This document shows, in pieces, positions 17,253-25,382 of a stretch of DNA of 64,000 bases. The translations under genes and the position numbers were made by a program. The stretch is from the NCBI GenBank assembly GCA_040218735.1, contig JAVJQW010000012.1, positions 32,001-96,000 on the forward strand, written 5' to 3'. The stretch comes from Deltaproteobacteria bacterium (GTDB lineage Bacteria; Myxococcota; Kuafuiibacteriia; Kuafuiibacteriales; Kuafuiibacteriaceae). The notes under the pieces were generated by a model that worked only from the letters and a program-made list of their open reading frames with translations, did no database searches and had not been told where the DNA came from. Each line of letters starts with the position of its first letter. Within the stretch, counting starts at the first letter, position 1.

Positions 17253-17341
17253 TGGTCCACGCCGGAGCCCGGGCGCCGCCTCGGCTTCGTCATGGGCTTC
17301 GCGACACCTGGCTCACATCCGTCATTCGTCCTTCGTGCAGG

Positions 17342-17355
17342 ACGACATATGTCGT
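17342..17355. promoter_or_regulatory. Perfect 14-bp palindrome ACGACATATGTCGT; candidate Crp/Fnr-family site
   Basis: Between Crp gene and next lipoprotein; same core recurs at 20415-20426. Confidence 0.6.
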
Positions 17356-17426
17356 GTCGCGCTCGCGTGCCTCTGGCGTCCCATCCCACCGTCGCAATCA
17401 CGCGACGGAAGGGATCACGAACACAA

Positions 17427-18509
17427 ATGTCCAAGTCACGCTCAGTAGCCTCCATGACCCTCGCCCTCGCCCTCACCGCCTGCGGCGGGGGCTCCGACGG
17501 CCCGACCCAACGCGACCCGATCATCCCCTGCGGCGCCGATAGCTGCGGCAAGGAGTCGTTCCGTCGCGCCGTGCCCAGCGCGTCCACGCTGAAGATCGAA
17601 TTCCAGGGCACCTCGGGCTCCGGCCTGAAGGCCCGCTCGAGCCGCGCGCTCGAAGCCGTCTCGCCCGCCTACCTCTCCACGGCCGCCTACGTGGACGCGA
17701 TCAACGCGGACATCACGGCCATCTTCGACGACCTCGAAGCGATCGCCGGCACCGCGCCCGAGGTCGAGGACGACGCGATGCACGAGTGGCGCGAGGAGGA
17801 AGGCGCGCTCGAAGAGGTCCTCCACATCGACTCCGACGACGGCAGCACGTTCTCGCTGATGTACGGCGTCGGCGAGCCGGGCTTCGAGCTGTCCGCGGAC
17901 GCCGCCCTCCTCACCGCCCAGGTGCAGCTCGACGCGGACGGCGAGAAGGCGAGCTTCACGATCGACATCGACCTCGACGCGTGGACGGCCGCCGTCCCCG
18001 AGGCCGACGCCGAGGGCCGGATCCACATCCGCGCGATGCCGCTCGCGGGCGGTGAGCTCGAGGTTTGGTACGACTTCCAGGACGTCGCGGTCGGCGGTGA
18101 CGCGCCCGCGAGCTCGCAGACGACCTACTGGATCTTCGAGGGTGCGTCCGGCGCGCTCGAGTTCTTGGCGGCGGACGACGACGGCTCCGCCACGGCGTTC
18201 GTGCGATGGGCCGAGGACGGCGGGCGCTACGATCACCACGTCGCGTTCGACGATCCCGAGTTCGGCACGGTCGACGAGATCGTGACCAACTGCTGGGACG
18301 ACAGCGCCGCCGAGACCTTCGACGCCTCCGCGGTGCTCGACGACCAGGGCGCCTTCGAGGCCGACCTCGACGGCGAAGAGGAAAGCTGCCTCTTCGGACC
18401 GGTCGCGGACCACCCGAACCCGGGCAGCGACTTCGAGGACCTCCCCGGCGAAGGGGAGTGGCAAGCGCTCGAGGACGAAGCGTGCGCCGCCGACCCGGAT
18501 CAGTGCTGA
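17427..18509 (+). CDS. Highly acidic lipoprotein, unknown function
   Basis: Lipobox LTAC; strong GC3 bias. Confidence 0.75.
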   Translation: MSKSRSVASMTLALALTACGGGSDGPTQRDPIIPCGADSCGKESFRRAVPSASTLKIEFQGTSGSGLKARSSRALEAVSPAYLSTAAYVDAINADITAIFDDLEAIAGTAPEVEDDAMHEWREEEGALEEVLHIDSDDGSTFSLMYGVGEPGFELSADAALLTAQVQLDADGEKASFTIDIDLDAWTAAVPEADAEGRIHIRAMPLAGGELEVWYDFQDVAVGGDAPASSQTTYWIFEGASGALEFLAADDDGSATAFVRWAEDGGRYDHHVAFDDPEFGTVDEIVTNCWDDSAAETFDASAVLDDQGAFEADLDGEEESCLFGPVADHPNPGSDFEDLPGEGEWQALEDEACAADPDQC

Positions 18510-18510
18510 G

Positions 18511-19248
18511 TCAGGTCGAAGACTGAGGGCAGTCGTGCGCGCCCTTGGGCGTCTCGTTGTGGTTGTACGTCCGCGCGGTCTTCTCGAACGGGTTGCCGCA
18601 GCCTCCGGACGTCATCGACATCGCGGCGCCCTGGGCGTGGCCCCACGACATGCCGACGATCAGATAGGTCAGGTAGAAGCCGATCTCGTGAAAGGCCATG
18701 ACCTGCCGGCTGTGGAACGCCTCGTGCTGCGCGAGGTCGTCCTTGGCGCGGCCGCTCTCCTCGAAGCAGCCGCCCTTCGCCCACACCACGCCGCCGAGCG
18801 TGATCGCCGCCTGGCTCTTGCTCCCGATGTTCAGGAGCACCACGCCGCGCCGGAACGACACGTCGTTTGCGATGGCCACGACGATCGACGCGAGCATGCC
18901 GATCGTCGTGGTCAGCGGTGACTGCGTCCACTTCAGGAGAAGCGAGAACACCGAGGCCGCGTAGTGATCCGCGAGGTCCAACACCCGCGTGAGGAGCGCC
19001 CCGACGATCGACAAACCTGCGTACACGCCGAGCCCGTACACCACGATCTCGGGCGTCTTCTCGGACACCGCGATCCCGTACAGGATCCCCGTCACCGCCA
19101 TCGCCCCGACCTCCGCGGCGATCAAGTTGCAGAGCCACTCGTCCCAGGTCTTCGACTGGTTTGCGCCCGAGAACGCGAGCGACGCCATCAACCCGACGAG
19201 CGCCGCCCACAGGAACGTGTACTCGTAGATGAGCTGGATCTTCGTCAT
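18511..19248 (-). CDS. Membrane protein with HExxH motif (possible zinc peptidase)
   Basis: Several TMs then AITLGGVVW...QHEAFHSRQ...NPFEKTA; coupled to upstream gene. Confidence 0.65.
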   Translation of the reverse strand: MTKIQLIYEYTFLWAALVGLMASLAFSGANQSKTWDEWLCNLIAAEVGAMAVTGILYGIAVSEKTPEIVVYGLGVYAGLSIVGALLTRVLDLADHYAASVFSLLLKWTQSPLTTTIGMLASIVVAIANDVSFRRGVVLLNIGSKSQAAITLGGVVWAKGGCFEESGRAKDDLAQHEAFHSRQVMAFHEIGFYLTYLIVGMSWGHAQGAAMSMTSGGCGNPFEKTARTYNHNETPKGAHDCPQSST

Positions 19249-20372
19249 CAGTCGAGCCCCGACACCTCGAGGCTGTACGGCTCGGTGCAGCTATAGCCGC
19301 TGAACCGGCGCACCTCGATGAAGTACGTGCCGCTGTCGTCGCCGCCGAACCCTTCGCCCCACTCGATGTACTCGTCGTCGTTGTCGGCGTTGTCACTCGC
19401 GCCGATCGGGTCGAGCGCCTCACAGCGGCTCTGCGACGGGTACAGGTAGATGTCGTAGTCGGCGCCCGCGGGGACGTTCGTCAGCGTCACGTAGATCCAC
19501 TCGCGGTAGCTGTTCGAGTCGTCGGCGAGGAACTTGTAGCAGTCGACGTCGTCGTCGACGCTGTCGAAGCTCCCCGTCAACACGAGGTCCGGATCGGGCG
19601 TCGCCTGGATGAGCTTGCAGTCGGCGCAGGTGTCGTTCGGCTCGAAGGCGTCGGGCATCCGAAGGTCCGAGCCGTCGCAGTCCTGGTCGATCCCGTCGCC
19701 GCAGATCTCCGCGGAGCCGTCGCCGCCGACACACATCGCCCACGTGCCGCCCGCCTGACAGGTCTCAGTGCCCGCGCCGCACATGCCCATGCAAGCGCGC
19801 GTCGCGCCGACGCAGTCCGGGTCCATGCAGTCGACGAGCGCGTCGCAGTCGTCGTCGACGCCGTTGTCACACGACGCTTCGCGGTTGCCGCTCATGCACT
19901 GACACGACCCCATGCTGCAGAACTGATCCGCGCCGCAGACCTCGCCGCACTTGCCGCAGTGGTTTCGATTCGACACGACGTCGACGCAACTTCCGTTGCA
20001 GTCGAGGAGGTCCGGCGGGCAGACACACGCGCCGCCGACGCAGTCGCGATCCTGGGGGCACGCACGATCACAGCGGCCGCAGTGCGTGCGATCCGTCTGA
20101 AGATCCGTGCACGCCGATCCGCACGCCGTGAGGCTCGGGTTGCAGATGGCGACGCACTGCCCGTCGTCGCAGAACGACGAAGCGGGGCACGGCAGATCAC
20201 ACCCGCCGCAGTGGCTCGGGTTGTTCGAGGTGAGGACACACGCCCCGCCGCACAGGACGAAGGGCGCCTCGCACGAGCTCGGCGGACCACCGTCGCGGCG
20301 CTCCCCTCCGCCGTCATCGCCGCCCGAACACGCGACGATCAGGCACAACCCGGCGAGCCATGCGGTCTTCAC
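19248..20372 (-). CDS. Cys-rich lipoprotein with DDDC Ca/metal-binding repeats and C-terminal PPC-like domain
   Basis: Lipobox IVAC; NPSHCGGC/RTHCGRC/RNHCGKC repeats; CDNGVDDDCD, EICGDGIDQDCDG; DAFEPND; DYDIYLY, GTYFIEV. Confidence 0.8.
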   Translation of the reverse strand: MKTAWLAGLCLIVACSGGDDGGGERRDGGPPSSCEAPFVLCGGACVLTSNNPSHCGGCDLPCPASSFCDDGQCVAICNPSLTACGSACTDLQTDRTHCGRCDRACPQDRDCVGGACVCPPDLLDCNGSCVDVVSNRNHCGKCGEVCGADQFCSMGSCQCMSGNREASCDNGVDDDCDALVDCMDPDCVGATRACMGMCGAGTETCQAGGTWAMCVGGDGSAEICGDGIDQDCDGSDLRMPDAFEPNDTCADCKLIQATPDPDLVLTGSFDSVDDDVDCYKFLADDSNSYREWIYVTLTNVPAGADYDIYLYPSQSRCEALDPIGASDNADNDDEYIEWGEGFGGDDSGTYFIEVRRFSGYSCTEPYSLEVSGLD

Positions 20373-20481: not shown

Positions 20482-22029
20482 ATGACCGCCGACCTGCGCC
20501 GCACCGCCATCCTACTCGCCACACTCCCCATCTTCGCTTGCGGAGAAGATCCCGTCGCCCCCATCGGCGATACACCGGACGTCGCGACCGCACCGCACGT
20601 GCTCGCACTTTCGACTTACGGCGCGAGCGTCGGCACCCTCGTCGAGGTGTACGGCGAGAACTTCGGCGCCATCGATGGTTCCGTCGCCAACCTCCTGTTC
20701 GAAGGCCACTTCCTCCACAACGACGGCACGGTCGAGACCGTCTCGTCGATCCAGGACGCCCGCATCGTCGACAAGTCCACGATGCGCTGGACGTCCTACG
20801 GCCCCTACGCCAACCCGTTCACCACGGACGGCTCCGGCATCGGGACGTTCGAAGGCACCGTCGCCGCGCTCATCACCGAGCCGGACGGCACCGCCCACGC
20901 CGACCCGCAGCCGATCGACGTGCGATTCGACGTCAAACCGTCGCTCCTCGTTCGCGGCTTCCAGCCCCTCACCGCGAGCTGCAATGGCAACGTCCTGCGC
21001 GGGATCGGCGGCGCGTCGTACCGCGTCGAGGTGGAGGCCATCGGCTTCGAGCCCGAGACCATCACCTACACCCTCGCGGCCCCCGGCATCCTCGAGTTCC
21101 CGACCTCCGTGCGGCACCTGACCTCGGACAAGATCGACAGCGTCGGTGACCGCGGCAACTTCCGGCTCCCGCAGGTCCCGGACGGCATCCCGTCCTACGG
21201 CGCCATCCTCACCGCGCAGGCGCGCGACGCCGAAGGCAACCTCTACAGCAACGCGTTCGGCTTCACGGTGCACCGTCCGATCGGCGTCTTCTACAACGGC
21301 AACATCGAGGTCGGCGAAGTCCTCGAGCCGACGCCCGTCTCGGGCTGCATCCCGGGCGGCGTGAACGGCCGACAGGTCCAGTACACCGAGTCGCAGGCGG
21401 AGACCCGCAGCCGCAGCTACGGCGTCAGCTGGAACCAGAGCTGGCTCGCCTCGCACACCGTCGCGAGCGGCAGCTCCGAGACGGTCGGCCTGTCGGAGCG
21501 CAACGGCGTCGGGTTCTCGACGACGGACGGCCAGTCCTTCAACTGGTCGCTCGGCGGCGAGGTCGGCGGCACGTTCGGCCTCGACAAACTCGTCTCGCTC
21601 GGCGTGAAGACGAGCGCCGAGGTCGGCGGCGAGCGTAGCCGGCAGACCTCGAACAGCGTCAACCGCGAGACCGGCGTGAACGCGTCCTCGACGACGACCG
21701 AGACCGAGTCCGTGTCGCAGTCGGCCGGCGGCGGCGTCGGTGAGCAGTTCGCATGGAACGTGAGCTCCTCGCAGGTCATCAGCCAGGGCTTCGGCGGGCA
21801 GGTCATCGCCGGCACCTTCGGCGTCTTCTACCGTCAGACGCTGCGCCTCACGCGGCGCGCGGCGCTCGTCGCCTACAACCAGTGCGGCTACGCGACGGTC
21901 GTCGGCGAGGTCGACTTCACCGACTGGACGTGGTCGCCGGACCTCGCCATCGGCAACAGCTGCCCGCCCCTCCCCGCGAGCAACCTCCCCACCGCGCAGT
22001 GCTACACGCCGCCGTGTGCCGGCCAATGA
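20482..22029 (+). CDS. Lipoprotein with Ig/IPT-like N-terminus and putative beta-pore-forming (aerolysin/ETX-like) C-terminal domain
   Basis: Lipobox IFAC; GTLVEVYGENF; long Ser/Thr/Gly alternating tract around FNWSLGGEVGGTFGLDKLVSLGVKTSAEVGG. CDS is certain, function is inferred. Confidence 0.6.
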   Translation: MTADLRRTAILLATLPIFACGEDPVAPIGDTPDVATAPHVLALSTYGASVGTLVEVYGENFGAIDGSVANLLFEGHFLHNDGTVETVSSIQDARIVDKSTMRWTSYGPYANPFTTDGSGIGTFEGTVAALITEPDGTAHADPQPIDVRFDVKPSLLVRGFQPLTASCNGNVLRGIGGASYRVEVEAIGFEPETITYTLAAPGILEFPTSVRHLTSDKIDSVGDRGNFRLPQVPDGIPSYGAILTAQARDAEGNLYSNAFGFTVHRPIGVFYNGNIEVGEVLEPTPVSGCIPGGVNGRQVQYTESQAETRSRSYGVSWNQSWLASHTVASGSSETVGLSERNGVGFSTTDGQSFNWSLGGEVGGTFGLDKLVSLGVKTSAEVGGERSRQTSNSVNRETGVNASSTTTETESVSQSAGGGVGEQFAWNVSSSQVISQGFGGQVIAGTFGVFYRQTLRLTRRAALVAYNQCGYATVVGEVDFTDWTWSPDLAIGNSCPPLPASNLPTAQCYTPPCAGQ

Positions 22030-22889
22030 ACCGCTACGCCGCGTCGACGATCGCGGCGTTGGCGTTCGCCGCGTGTGGAGGGCCGACGATCGATCGTCCG
22101 GACGGCGGCCCGCTGTTCGAGATCGACGCCGGTGTCTTCGTGCCCGACCCGCCGCGGTGGGACGTGCGCGACATCGACACCCGCACGCCCTACGGCATCG
22201 CGACGCTCCGCGGACGCAGCGACGCGCGGCACGTGATCATCGAAGGGCTCGACAACCCGGTCCACCGGCGTGTGCTGCCCGACGGCACGTTCTGCATCGA
22301 CCTCGATCTCGGCGGCCCGGGCAGCTACGTGTTCACGGCGATCGGCCTCGACGGCGGTGAGCGCTCCGGCGCGAGCGACCCGATCACCATCGAGTTCGAT
22401 CCGAACGCCCCGGACCTCCCGCAGGCGACGACCTGCAGCGGCGACCACCCCGCCGCGTGCCTCAACGCCGTGGAGATCTGCGGCAACATGCGCGACGACG
22501 ACTGCAACAGCCTCATCGACGAGGAAGATCCGACGTGCGCGATCTGCACGAACGACCCCTTCGAGCCGAACGACGATCCGAGCGCGCCACAGGTCGAGCC
22601 GGGCACGATCACCGACCTGCAGTTGTGCCCCGACGACGTGGACTACTACGGCGTGTTCGCGGACGAGAACCAGACCATCACCGCGCGCATTTTGTTCTTC
22701 CACTCCGAGGGCAACCTCGACCTGATCCTCTACGGACCGAACCGGACCAAGGTGATCGCGCAGAGCCTCTCGGACACGAACAACGAGACGATCACCCACA
22801 CGGCGACCCAGGCGGACGTCTACTCGATCGAGGTCTCCGCGGAGCGCAACGTCTCGAACAGCTACACCCTCGAGCTCGAAGTCAACTGA
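22026..22889 (+). CDS. Lipoprotein with DDDC motif and PPC-like domain
   Basis: ATGA overlap; lipobox FAAC; EICGNMRDDDCNSLIDE; DPFEPND; DVDYY, GNLDLILY, YTLELEV. Confidence 0.78.
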   Translation: MNRYAASTIAALAFAACGGPTIDRPDGGPLFEIDAGVFVPDPPRWDVRDIDTRTPYGIATLRGRSDARHVIIEGLDNPVHRRVLPDGTFCIDLDLGGPGSYVFTAIGLDGGERSGASDPITIEFDPNAPDLPQATTCSGDHPAACLNAVEICGNMRDDDCNSLIDEEDPTCAICTNDPFEPNDDPSAPQVEPGTITDLQLCPDDVDYYGVFADENQTITARILFFHSEGNLDLILYGPNRTKVIAQSLSDTNNETITHTATQADVYSIEVSAERNVSNSYTLELEVN

Positions 22890-22899
22890 GTCGACCCTC

Positions 22900-24783
22900 A
22901 TGCGCGCGACCGCGATCCTGCTCGTGACGGTCGTCGCGACGGCCGCGCAGACGGCGTCGGCGGCGCCCACCGAGTGGAAGTGGCGGCAGATCCTCTCCGT
23001 CCCGCGCATCGGCGCGCGCCTCACCGCGATCGCCGTCGACGAGCAGGACCCGAATCGCATCTTCGTCGGCACGCAGGAGGGCACCGTCCTGCGCACGACC
23101 GACGGCGGCGTGACGTGGCGCGAGCTGGAGCTGCGGCCCTTCGTCGTCGCGGACCGCAGCCTCGGTCTGCGCGCGCCCGGCCTGCCCCGACTCGGCGCGA
23201 CCACGCCCGAGGACTTCAAGATGTTCGTCGACGCACCAGACCAGGAGGTCGGCGACCGCATCGGGATCTCCAGCGTCGCGAACCCGTTCGAGATCAAGCC
23301 GTCGTTCTTCTACGCGGGGTTCGTCGTCGAGGAGACGCCGCCGACCGTCGACGTCCTCAGCGCGGTCACCCGCTCCCGCTCGAGCGAGCTCAAGCCGGTG
23401 ATGCGCATCGCGATCTGCCCGGGCGCGCCCTTCCCGATCCTCGTCGCGACCAAACGCGACGTGTACGGCTCCTACGACGACGGCCTCACCTTCGTTCGGC
23501 TCTTCGCGAACCCGGGCCGCACCAACATCGACCATGTCCTCTGCGCACCGGGCCGCCCCAACGACGTCGCGGTGGCGACGCAGATCGGTTTGTTCCGCTC
23601 GCGCGACGGCGGCCTCACCTTCGACCAGGACCTCACCGCGTGGCCGGGGCAGCGCGCGACGGCGGTGGCGTACGGCCCGTCGAAGGATATCGGCGACGTC
23701 CGCCTCTACTCGGCCGCCGGCTCGGAGCTGTTCGCCGGTGACCTCGACGACCCGAACGGCCTGACGACCGTCTACCCGAACGACGCCTCCACCGCGCCCT
23801 GGCTCCCGATCTGGTGGATGGCCACCACGAAGGAGGGCGACGTCTGGCTCGCGACCGACGACGGCGTCCGCCGCTCGCGCGACAAGGGCGTCACCTGGGA
23901 GACCGTCGCGCGGACGTTGCTGTCGCGCCAGGCGGTCTGGCAGGTCGAGGTCGGCGAGAACGAAGACGGCGGCCGCCGCGTCGCGATCATCATCAACGTG
24001 CAACCGCGAAAGGCGCTGCAGAACTCCGTGATCTACGCGAGCGACGACGACGGCAAGACGTGGCACGGCTTCTTCACGGGCCTGTCGCGCCGCACGTTCC
24101 GGATGATGGCGACCGTGCCGAGCACGGCGGAGCGTCCCGCGGGCTGGTGGGTCGCGACGTCCGGCGGCATCTGGACCAACTGGCCCTCCCCGGCGCACCT
24201 CACGATCGACGGCGAAGCCGCCGCCTGGGCGGACGATCGCTTGAGTAGAACCGAGAGCCTCTACGACGTCCTGCAGGAGATGCTCGACAACCTCGACCTG
24301 TCCAACGAGGCGATCGTCGAGCTGATGCACAAACACCGCGTGTCCGCCTGGGTGCCGCGCGTCGACATGCGCTTCGAGTACACGGACCGCGGGTTCCTCG
24401 ACTTCGAGGGGCAATCGCCCAACGCGGGCATCAACCCGATCCGCATCCTCACGCAGCAGAACGATCTGCTGTGGAACCGCAACCTCGTGTACTTCCTCTT
24501 CCAGCTCTCGTGGCGCCTCGGGAGCCTGCTGTCGATCGACGAGCTCAACGCGTACACCCGCGGCCCGATGCACGAGCTCAGGCGCCAGATTCAGTTCGCC
24601 ACCGAGGACGCCTGGCACGAACGCCAGCAGCTCCTCCTCAATCTCAGCGAAGGCCTGAGCGATCCCGTTCAGGTCGAATCCACCAAGACCCGCATCGAAG
24701 CGTTGGAAGCGATGATGGCCGTCTGGCTCGGCCGGCCCTATCCTGCTTCCGCCGCCTTCGTGCGAGCGAGGTCCAAGCAATGA
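22900..24783 (+). CDS. Exported BNR/Asp-box beta-propeller fused to a single TolC/OEP-like repeat
   Basis: Signal peptide; five Asp boxes TTDGGVTW, SYDDGLTF, SRDGGLTF, SRDKGVTW, SDDDGKTW; C-terminal helix-AWVPRV-strand..LSWRL-helix pattern. Confidence 0.7.
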   Translation: MRATAILLVTVVATAAQTASAAPTEWKWRQILSVPRIGARLTAIAVDEQDPNRIFVGTQEGTVLRTTDGGVTWRELELRPFVVADRSLGLRAPGLPRLGATTPEDFKMFVDAPDQEVGDRIGISSVANPFEIKPSFFYAGFVVEETPPTVDVLSAVTRSRSSELKPVMRIAICPGAPFPILVATKRDVYGSYDDGLTFVRLFANPGRTNIDHVLCAPGRPNDVAVATQIGLFRSRDGGLTFDQDLTAWPGQRATAVAYGPSKDIGDVRLYSAAGSELFAGDLDDPNGLTTVYPNDASTAPWLPIWWMATTKEGDVWLATDDGVRRSRDKGVTWETVARTLLSRQAVWQVEVGENEDGGRRVAIIINVQPRKALQNSVIYASDDDGKTWHGFFTGLSRRTFRMMATVPSTAERPAGWWVATSGGIWTNWPSPAHLTIDGEAAAWADDRLSRTESLYDVLQEMLDNLDLSNEAIVELMHKHRVSAWVPRVDMRFEYTDRGFLDFEGQSPNAGINPIRILTQQNDLLWNRNLVYFLFQLSWRLGSLLSIDELNAYTRGPMHELRRQIQFATEDAWHERQQLLLNLSEGLSDPVQVESTKTRIEALEAMMAVWLGRPYPASAAFVRARSKQ

Positions 24784-25382
24784 AACAGCGAATCACCCTG
24801 CCCGTCCTGTTGGTCGGCCTCCTGTCCAGCGGCGTCGCCGCCGCGCAGGGGGGCGCCGAGGCGATCGAAAAAGCGAAGGCCCAGTTCGCCAAGGAGCCGG
24901 CCGTCGCCGAGGTCGTCGAGGTCGCCCTGCGTTACTTCCGCGTGCACCCCGACGTGCTCGACAGCCTGCGCACCAAGGCGAAGACCCGCGCGCTGCTCCC
25001 GCTCGTCGCGGCCGGCTACCGGTACGACGACGACCGCTTCATCCGGCGCGAGGAACAGTTCCCCGACCCGGTGCTGAACATCGACGAGAACCACAACATG
25101 CGCGCGAACTCGATGTCGGTCGGCGCGGTCTGGGACCTCCGCCAGCTGGTCTTCAACCCCGCCGAGGTGCAGGTGTTCGGCCTCATCGGCGTTCAGCGCG
25201 ACATCATGCTGGAGGCGACGCGGACGTACTACCTCAGGAAGCAGCTGGTGCTCCGCAAGCTGTACAGCCCGCCGACGGATCCGATGGCGGTCGCGGCGCT
25301 CGACATGCGCATCGACGAGTTCACCGCGCTGCTCGACGTGCTGACCGGCGGCTGGTTCTCGAAGCAGTCGAACGCGAGTTAG
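24780..25382 (+). CDS. Exported single-repeat TolC/OEP-like protein
   Basis: ATGA overlap; signal peptide; ALLPLV strand, VGAVWDL strand, ATRTYY helix, LDVLTGG end. Confidence 0.65.
   Translation: MKQRITLPVLLVGLLSSGVAAAQGGAEAIEKAKAQFAKEPAVAEVVEVALRYFRVHPDVLDSLRTKAKTRALLPLVAAGYRYDDDRFIRREEQFPDPVLNIDENHNMRANSMSVGAVWDLRQLVFNPAEVQVFGLIGVQRDIMLEATRTYYLRKQLVLRKLYSPPTDPMAVAALDMRIDEFTALLDVLTGGWFSKQSNAS

Follow-up and report, generated by a model that had tools for sequence, protein, structure and literature searches.

What could four consecutive genes for exported proteins, with no efflux pump beside them, be building in the cell envelope of a member of the Myxococcota? The question is raised by a locus in a 64,000-nucleotide (nt) stretch of contig JAVJQW010000012.1 (positions 32,001 to 96,000, ca. 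69% G+C), referred to below as the window. We named the genes A, B, C and D, and to them we add up1, which lies outside the coordinates of the initial annotation of this DNA and is the fifth gene of the conserved set. The A-B-C-D cluster, conserved in uncultivated myxobacteria, probably encodes an undescribed envelope assembly. By analogy with known systems, C and D could form a short version of a TolC-like outer-membrane module, split over two genes, that would place or hold its client lipoproteins at the cell surface as a platform or conduit, a reading to which we give slightly less than an even chance. The features, with coordinates in the window, are as follows.

20482-22029, plus strand: gene A, 515 amino acids (aa), predicted lipoprotein with two Ig/FN3/macroglobulin-like domains (ca. 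residues 35-268) and a C-terminal domain of beta-strands of ca. 20 residues with conserved cysteines.
21427-21771, plus strand: variable insertion of A (residues 316-430), Ser/Thr/Gly-rich, the "hairpin" of the initial annotation.
22026-22889, plus strand: gene B, 287-aa predicted lipoprotein that ends in a PPC domain; which gene occupies this position depends on the lineage.
22900-24783, plus strand: gene C, 627 aa.
22987-24189, plus strand: propeller of C, BNR/Sortilin-type (ca. residues 30-430).
24208-24759, plus strand: D-like domain of C (ca. residues 437-620), one TolC-repeat-like unit.
24780-25382, plus strand: gene D, 200 aa, one TolC-repeat-like unit (helices 23-72, beta-hairpin 75-117, helix 127-162, helix 168-189).
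19251 to ca. 20372, minus strand: up1, predicted lipoprotein that combines Cys-rich repeats (Stig1/MopE-like) with a PPC-like C terminus, divergent from A.

Open reading frames (ORFs) with a G+C content at third codon positions (GC3) of 0.84 to 0.91 define A, B, C and D as four successive plus-strand genes. Read directly in the DNA, A and B overlap by an ATGA (22026-22029), as do C and D (24780-24783), and B is separated from C by a 10-nt gap (22890-22899); the coordinates and junctions given earlier for four exported proteins were thus verified, and C and D are translationally coupled genes. All four translations start with a hydrophobic, signal-like segment. By eye, this segment is followed by a cysteine (putative lipobox) in A and B and ends in Ala-rich sites resembling those of type I signal peptides in C and D; on the same reading of the translations, A, B and up1 are predicted to be lipoproteins. 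The start of up1 was placed near 20372 because its lipobox lies about 65 codons into a long ORF. Among the 12 neighboring ORFs scanned (10147-38314), we found no ATP-binding cassette (ABC) pump, resistance-nodulation-division (RND) pump or membrane-fusion protein, in line with the absence of these genes claimed at the outset.

The two genes at the end of the cluster are related to each other. Homology to D resides in the last ca. 190 aa of C, which BLASTP aligned at 22% identity over 176 columns with an E of 2e-6 and which a hidden Markov model (HMM) of the D domain recognizes with an E of 2.3e-20. The rest of C matches the propeller families PF15902 (36.1 bits, cut-off 33) and PF02012 (30.4 bits, cut-off 27), and the description of C as a propeller fused to one D-like repeat therefore holds. 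In a midpoint-rooted FastTree phylogeny of 121 D domains, the tail of C sits on a long branch, a placement that does not date the divergence between C and D. At one locus of a species-level genome collection (L072), two tandem C-like genes, each with a propeller and a D-like domain, precede D, so the number of propeller-bearing subunits can vary.

The shared domain, of ca. 170 aa, belongs to a large family that no Pfam model covers. Its profile found 1799 clusters at 50% identity (E ≤ 0.001) among 1.84 billion proteins, and Pfam annotation of 20 representatives showed it alone, behind an N-terminal extension without a Pfam family, or behind a BNR propeller. Only a single stretch is matched in 148 of the 150 best representatives, and two stretches in the others (P0328 and P0369). 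D itself is 54 to 100% identical to the 120 homologues listed, those with a label being from Myxococcota, and it is, as far as sequences tell, the best conserved gene of the set. A search of the ESM Atlas with D returned only Myxococcota clusters. In its own genome, the D-domain HMM detects D, C and a third paralogue on contig C70. The AlphaFold model of D, with a mean predicted local distance difference test (pLDDT) of 87.5 and a predicted template modeling score of 0.67, has three N-terminal helices, a beta-hairpin of two 19-residue strands, a 36-residue helix and a 22-residue helix.

Is this domain related to the repeat of TolC? In favor of it, hhalign matched 121 D-domain sequences to 32 repeats of the outer membrane efflux protein family (OEP) from the same genome with a probability of 82.6% (E 9.7e-6, score 38.8, 81 columns). 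The elements fall in register, with a helix, a proline, strand 1, a loop, strand 2 and the start of the next helix, and a relaxed alignment of D with OEP reaches the C-terminal Gly motif, gapped where the TolC helices are longer. Against the real score of 38.8, the controls gave 19.7 (reversed OEP), at most 16.0 (20 column shuffles) and 14.1 (the unrelated A profile), with probabilities of at most 2.7%. Run over 59,410 six-frame ORFs, the D-domain HMM placed a canonical OEP protein at rank 8, below threshold (E 1.9), the match falling on its second repeat in register. In structure comparison, the ten best PDB chains found by Foldseek with the D model are all of the TolC family (OprM and OprN kind; best 7akz_A, E 8.6e-3, probability 0.98), and VIA-align, applied to this list, superposed TolC, VceC, CusC and OprM over 149 to 168 residues, on either their first or their second repeat (Z 4.7-6.1).

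Other results weigh against such a kinship. Neither C nor D is recognized by the Pfam model of OEP (PF02321, cut-off 22 bits) at E ≤ 1, and a genome-wide search with this model gave 44 matches, none of them at this locus. No TolC was found among PDB sequences with the D profile, and a PDB sequence search with D itself gave nothing useful. When only 39 close D sequences were compared with the OEP repeats, the hhalign probability was just 20.7%. The Foldseek scores are weak (none with E ≤ 0.001, template modeling score [TM] 0.2-0.31, root mean square deviation [rmsd] 12-15 Å), and in the same VIA-align list helical bundles stand above the TolC-family chains (TorS Z 7.8, apoA-IV Z 6.4). Over 48,161 PDB representatives, VIA-align put no TolC-family chain in the top 50, which are generic helical bundles (Z 5.7-7.6) aligning 51 to 135 residues. 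Finally, hydrophobic alternation in the D family extends over only ca. 5 to 7 residues per strand at the base of the hairpin, which is short for a membrane strand, and outside the two hairpin bases its hydrophobic-moment profile is too noisy to distinguish helix from strand. Weighing both sides, we regard it as quite likely that the C/D domain is a remote, shortened relative of the TolC repeat, to which its likeness is moderate; by Pfam it lies outside the OEP family as defined. The term "OEP-like" in the initial annotation is thus backed, weakly to moderately, by profile-profile and fold comparison and fails by the Pfam family model. The modeling and fold searches proposed there gave a TolC-like topology with weak scores for D, and for A only Ig-like matches and an unstructured insertion. 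As predicted from sequences and models, the outer-membrane assembly envisaged there would fit C and D.

The comparison with outer-membrane factors (OMFs) such as TolC, OprM, CusC and VceC makes both sides concrete. D has the same order of elements, with helices first, then a two-stranded beta-hairpin, and last a helical hairpin that closes with a motif containing Gly; its profile matches in register, OMFs top its Foldseek list, and a type I signal peptide is present in OMFs and, read by eye, in C and D. C and D may also be viewed as two non-identical repeats side by side, as within one TolC chain. Unlike OMFs, however, which carry two repeats, C and D have one repeat per polypeptide, on two genes, and one of the repeats is fused behind a beta-propeller. 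In addition, the helices of D, modeled at 36 and 22 residues, have only about half the length, its hairpin, with strands of 19 residues and a distal half that is polar, exceeds that of OMFs, and the OEP score of C and D is under the Pfam reporting level. They also lack an adaptor or pump gene nearby and are linked to lipoproteins instead. It should be noted that tolC itself is unlinked in Escherichia coli, so linkage to a pump or adaptor is a weak criterion.

How stable is the association of the C/D pair with lipoprotein genes? We used a sample of 401 genomes of the phylum, with families labeled f1 and so on, and considered two genes linked when they lay within 6 kb on the same contig. The order A-B-C-D is kept in three genomes of the same family as the window (G011, G002 and G008) and decayed or split in two (G004 and G010). 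The A profile matched 39 genomes, 22 of which have a full A-family protein; left out were G006, in which the N-terminal domains alone occur inside a 1493-aa frame, and 16 weak matches, 15 of them to the N-terminal Ig-like domain only and one (G133) to a short central stretch. D is present in 20 of the 22 genomes and within 6 kb of A in 16, spread over six families (f1, f17, f19, f21, f15 and f36). Recurrence of the genes elsewhere had been set as one test of the original proposal, and A and D do recur together. The arrangement is A-B-C-D in f1; D and C are divergent from A and up1 in f17; the order is A, a discoidin lipoprotein, C and D in f19, and A, a discoidin lipoprotein and D in f15. A second sample, drawn from the species-level collection, consists of 19 loci with close D orthologues, all from uncultivated Myxococcota, Polyangiales or Sandaracinaceae (five being the same genomes as in the 401). 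At 18 of these loci D is immediately preceded by a C-like ORF, and 12 have A no more than 6 kb away.

This linkage is, however, not universal, a point against the reading of C and D as a module with client lipoproteins. Six of the 22 full-A genomes lack D within 6 kb; A is at a contig end in G078, G092 and G096, G108 is too fragmented for a verdict, and D was not found in G096 (84% complete) and G112 (81% complete). The A-B pair of G010 is on another contig than its C-D pair, 7 of the 19 D loci have no A within 6 kb, and the D profile matches as many as 108 of the 401 genomes vs. the 22 with full A. Broken reading frames were also seen: in G004 (locus L014, the same as L076) C is in pieces in four frames and D in two, and in L062 A and B are each spread over two frames. 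Either these copies are decaying or the assemblies contain errors.

Neighboring D-like genes of two different kinds are the rule, and the same pairing recurs in a conserved paralogous cluster. In the genome of the window, a diverged D-like protein (C70:340988-341587) is followed by a Big_5 protein (region G000:C70:339501-345360, L093), and clusters of this kind occur in other Myxococcota families (L028, L029, L030, L037, L039, L043 and L044). Their genes code for a BNR propeller with a D-like domain, a ComEA-like HHH_3 with a D-like domain (ca. 290 aa) and a Big_5 protein with a lamin-tail domain, and they often adjoin RuvA, RuvB or RuvC, or else a protein with the metallo-beta-lactamase fold. 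Where the genome has only 1 to 2.5 Mb (L033 and L034), the HHH_3 plus D-like gene adjoins PolA and the other two genes are absent. The paralogous cluster could be a candidate outer-membrane DNA-handling module.

Of the presumed partners, A is the one on which the linkage counts above are based. It is a single-copy gene in its genome, with 130 homologues found (the labeled ones from Myxococcota or Deltaproteobacteria), and the cysteine of its lipobox is at least 90% conserved among 51 aligned homologues. Pfam has no family on A or on any of these 51, PDB sequence searches with A and with its profile gave nothing useful, and the ESM Atlas returned only Myxococcota clusters. The AlphaFold model (mean pLDDT 74.4) is confident over residues 30-315 and 430-515. 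Searches with the whole model gave matches that are all Ig/FN3-like and cover residues 35-268, residues 268-515 being barely probed; both domains together align with Z up to 10.5 at an rmsd of 14.5 Å, and the second Ig-like domain alone with Z of about 9 to 10 and an rmsd of 1.9 to 3.1 Å. The C-terminal domain has four or five strands of ca. 20 residues each, modeled at 297-316, 422-441, 446-465 and 471-491. The insertion (residues 316-430) is rich in Ser, Thr and Gly, with one segment of alternating hydrophobic and polar residues. An alignment of ten family members shows that its length goes from ca. 25 aa in f19, f21 (G053) and f15, through ca. 130 aa here, to ca. 270 aa in f17. Columns 318-420 of the A profile are unmatched in the short forms, a Gly-rich hydrophobic tip with Ser/Thr-rich flanks recurs in long and short insertions, and homologues with the short insertion (ca. 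25 aa), in four families, still adjoin C and D.

The other two predicted lipoproteins are more variable. B matches PPC (PF04151) over the full length of the profile (residues 204-272) with a borderline 26.0 bits (cut-off 25.9), and scores 14.9 bits, with a cut-off of 41, against NF033662; of its former description as a "Ca-motif/PPC lipoprotein," the PPC part stands and the Ca motif is at best putative. In f19 and f15, the position of B is held by a discoidin (F5/8 type C) lipoprotein instead. Pfam matches of up1 are Stig1 (E 2.6e-11) and a MopE motif (E 1.8e-3). A homologue of up1 adjoins A in G011, G004 and G008, in four f17 genomes (G042, G119, G090 and G138) and in G078, and occurs also at L059, L061, L062, L071, L075 and L076 of the genome collection; it is divergent from A here and in the f1 relatives, and follows A in f17. 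We did not adopt the idea that B and up1 are paralogues, as all they have in common is a short motif of Cys and Asp (E 9e-4) and an end with a weak likeness to PPC.

How might these parts fit together? C and D would be outer-membrane proteins contributing one short TolC-type repeat each, vs. the two on a TolC chain, and three copies of C alternating with three of D may form a barrel of 12 strands that continues into a short collar of helices on the periplasmic side; three BNR propellers would hang from this assembly in the periplasm. Because the helices are about half as long as those of TolC and no pump or adaptor gene is nearby, such an assembly would not bridge to the inner membrane and would not be an efflux duct. 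It would rather work at the outer membrane with A, up1 and B (or whichever gene occupies its variable position) as clients or partners, proteins with predicted binding-type domains (Ig-like, PPC or discoidin, and Cys-rich). Its most likely role would be to place or hold these lipoproteins at the surface, as a platform or conduit dedicated to them, with the client role, as well as any channel activity, suggested by analogy. We predicted the complex of three C(447-614) and three D(36-197) chains in three runs, with three controls. The median ipSAE (an interface score from aligned errors) was 0.36 (runs 0.36, 0.59 and 0.29) and the best control reached 0.00, which is graded as weak support; partner pLDDT was at least 59, and at least 79% of the contacts were common to the runs. 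When the score was calibrated, 58 of 80 solved complexes attained the mark, as did 2 of 110 mismatched pairs; passing scores of up to 0.60 comprise only 7 of the 80 solved complexes together with both passing mismatches and are more often wrong unless the guess was likely beforehand. TolC structures are solved, so the pass of the 3+3 model may partly reflect likeness to them.

A bolder version of the same idea is that of a heteromeric "half-TolC," a pump-less outer-membrane translocon in which the polar extensions of the hairpins and the length-variable Ser/Thr/Gly hairpin of A would form an extracellular beta-structure that exposes or delivers the linked lipoproteins, and whose ComEA-like sister system would pass DNA. 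We consider this a long shot. If true, the single-repeat ancestor implied by the internal duplication of TolC would have a present-day counterpart here, in split form. Analogies may also be drawn with Slam (type 11 secretion) and with SusC/D and its SusE/F, where a barrel gene also stands next to the lipoproteins it presumably serves, and with BamB, a periplasmic propeller attached to an outer-membrane machine. However, there is no DUF560 barrel, TonB-dependent transporter or BamA here, and the barrel would be TolC-like and heteromeric; what is shared with these systems would be logic only and not homology.

Among the alternatives to a surface platform or conduit, the one that survives best makes the D-like domain an anchor instead of a channel. 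It would fasten periplasmic modules, such as BNR propellers or ComEA-like helix-hairpin-helix domains, to the outer membrane, as in a scaffold or assembly factor of the BamB or Ycf48 type, with A, B and up1 as outer-membrane lipoproteins that face the periplasm and bind the propeller. The fusions of the D-like domain behind propellers (proteins of ca. 500 to 740 aa) and behind HHH_3 domains (ca. 290 aa) speak for such an anchor, the PDB relatives of the C propeller include Ycf48 and a single BNR hydrolase-like propeller besides GH74 enzymes, and the short helices of D argue against a long duct. On the other hand, the bare 200-aa D has no passenger, and its conservation, the highest of the set, is easier to reconcile with a structural partner in a barrel than with an anchor that has no cargo. 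We regard the anchor as unlikely, although still a serious contender; anchoring and a channel are, in any case, not mutually exclusive.

Capture of nutrients seems improbable. Here A, up1 and the PPC or discoidin lipoprotein would catch a polymer at the surface that the C/D barrel admits to the periplasmic propeller, following a logic like that of SusE/F, surface lipoproteins that bind glycans and cooperate with a transporter of the outer membrane. The two Ig/FN3-like domains of A suit this role, the N terminus of A weakly resembles the IPT/TIG domain of a Bacteroides surface glycan-binding protein (5e7g_A, E 0.037), the discoidin domains at the position of B in f19 and f15 are galactose-binding-like, and the best PDB sequence matches of the C propeller are GH74 xyloglucanases (2cn2_A, E 4e-19). 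These last matches, though, run through short Asp-box repeat stretches, and GH74 enzymes need two propellers where C has one. Moreover, C scores 65.6 bits against the NCBIfam glycosylhydrolase model, far under its cut-off of 175, and the scanned neighbors include no glycoside hydrolase, TonB-dependent transporter or sugar-metabolism gene.

In the model put forward in the initial annotation, A is a beta-pore-former that inserts a giant amphipathic hairpin into a target membrane, and C and D are the machinery for its display or delivery, serving predation or exchange between cells. We give this model little chance, and no result obtained here shows a pore-former. The model drew on real features: A has the alternating, Gly-rich stretch with its Ser/Thr-rich flanks and a hydrophobic tip kept in homologues, it is tightly linked to C and D, and its C-terminal domain is modeled with strands of ca. 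20 residues, elongated sheets of long strands being a trait of aerolysin-type toxins. A nevertheless has no HMM or profile similarity to these toxins. No toxin family of Pfam matches A or its 51 aligned homologues, PF03318 (ETX_MTX2) has no match in the genome of the window, and hhalign of A, or of its C-terminal half, with nine myxobacterial ETX/MTX2 proteins, a comparison of sequence profiles and not of folds, gave probabilities of only 1.3 to 1.6%. PF03318 was found in 10 of the 401 genomes, all of family f9, and neither A nor D was found in the 172 genomes of f9. As an observation on its own, f9 is the largest family sampled, and its ETX/MTX2 genomes do not overlap with the A/D gene set in this sample. 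The supposed hairpin is not confidently modeled either (pLDDT 20-44), appearing disordered, and this, together with a tenfold variation in length (ca. 25 to 270 residues), is unlike a stem of fixed length. What the fold searches did find in A, a predicted lipoprotein, were the two Ig-like domains (residues 35-268), which also sets it apart from the aerolysin type. Weaker still, and very improbable in our opinion, is the view that the D-like domain is a soluble periplasmic or secreted coiled coil with a beta-hairpin whose likeness to OMFs is convergent or spurious, because, even if the unbiased VIA-align search ranks only helical bundles, no direct HMM match joins the families and TM does not exceed 0.31, the in-register profile match is well over its controls, the sub-threshold HMM match lands on an OEP repeat in register, the ten top Foldseek matches are all OMFs, and the OMF alignments are longer (149 to 168 residues) than those of the 50 helical-bundle rows (51 to 135).

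The surroundings of the cluster are of a general nature. The scanned ORFs code for metabolic enzymes, a Crp-type regulator, a CBS protein, phosphoenolpyruvate carboxylase, a major facilitator superfamily transporter and a histidine kinase. A promoter and terminator scan gave no promoter-like sites and three terminator-like sites on the minus strand, not above shuffled sequences, and so carries no information on the structure of the operon. A gene that we call up2 (18514-19248, minus strand) codes for a protein of 245 aa that crosses the membrane several times, has an H-E-x-x-H motif and lacks a Pfam family; its start overlaps the stop of up1, and it was not found beside up1 in five relatives. 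Between the Crp-type regulator and the up2/up1 pair, there is a 405-aa ORF (17292-18506, plus strand) with good GC3, no Pfam family and a single copy in the genome.

To our knowledge, TolC-type channels have always been described as trimers of two-repeat chains serving efflux pumps or type I secretion. The unit found here is a single repeat with short helices, carried by two adjacent genes, fused to a propeller or, elsewhere, to DNA-binding domains, and unlinked to a pump. The result listings of a full-text literature search contained no account of this cluster, or of a TolC that is split or has a single repeat. What is new is the Myxococcota version of the C/D pair and its conserved linkage to the A lipoprotein family. 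The D-domain family is large and yet without a Pfam model, and the failure to find it in f9, which we take to be the family that holds the model myxobacterial species, may explain why it has not been studied. The specific linkage to A offers a concrete, testable client. If the single-repeat version is true, it would show how the TolC fold originated by duplication and would point to functions of this fold at the outer membrane other than efflux.

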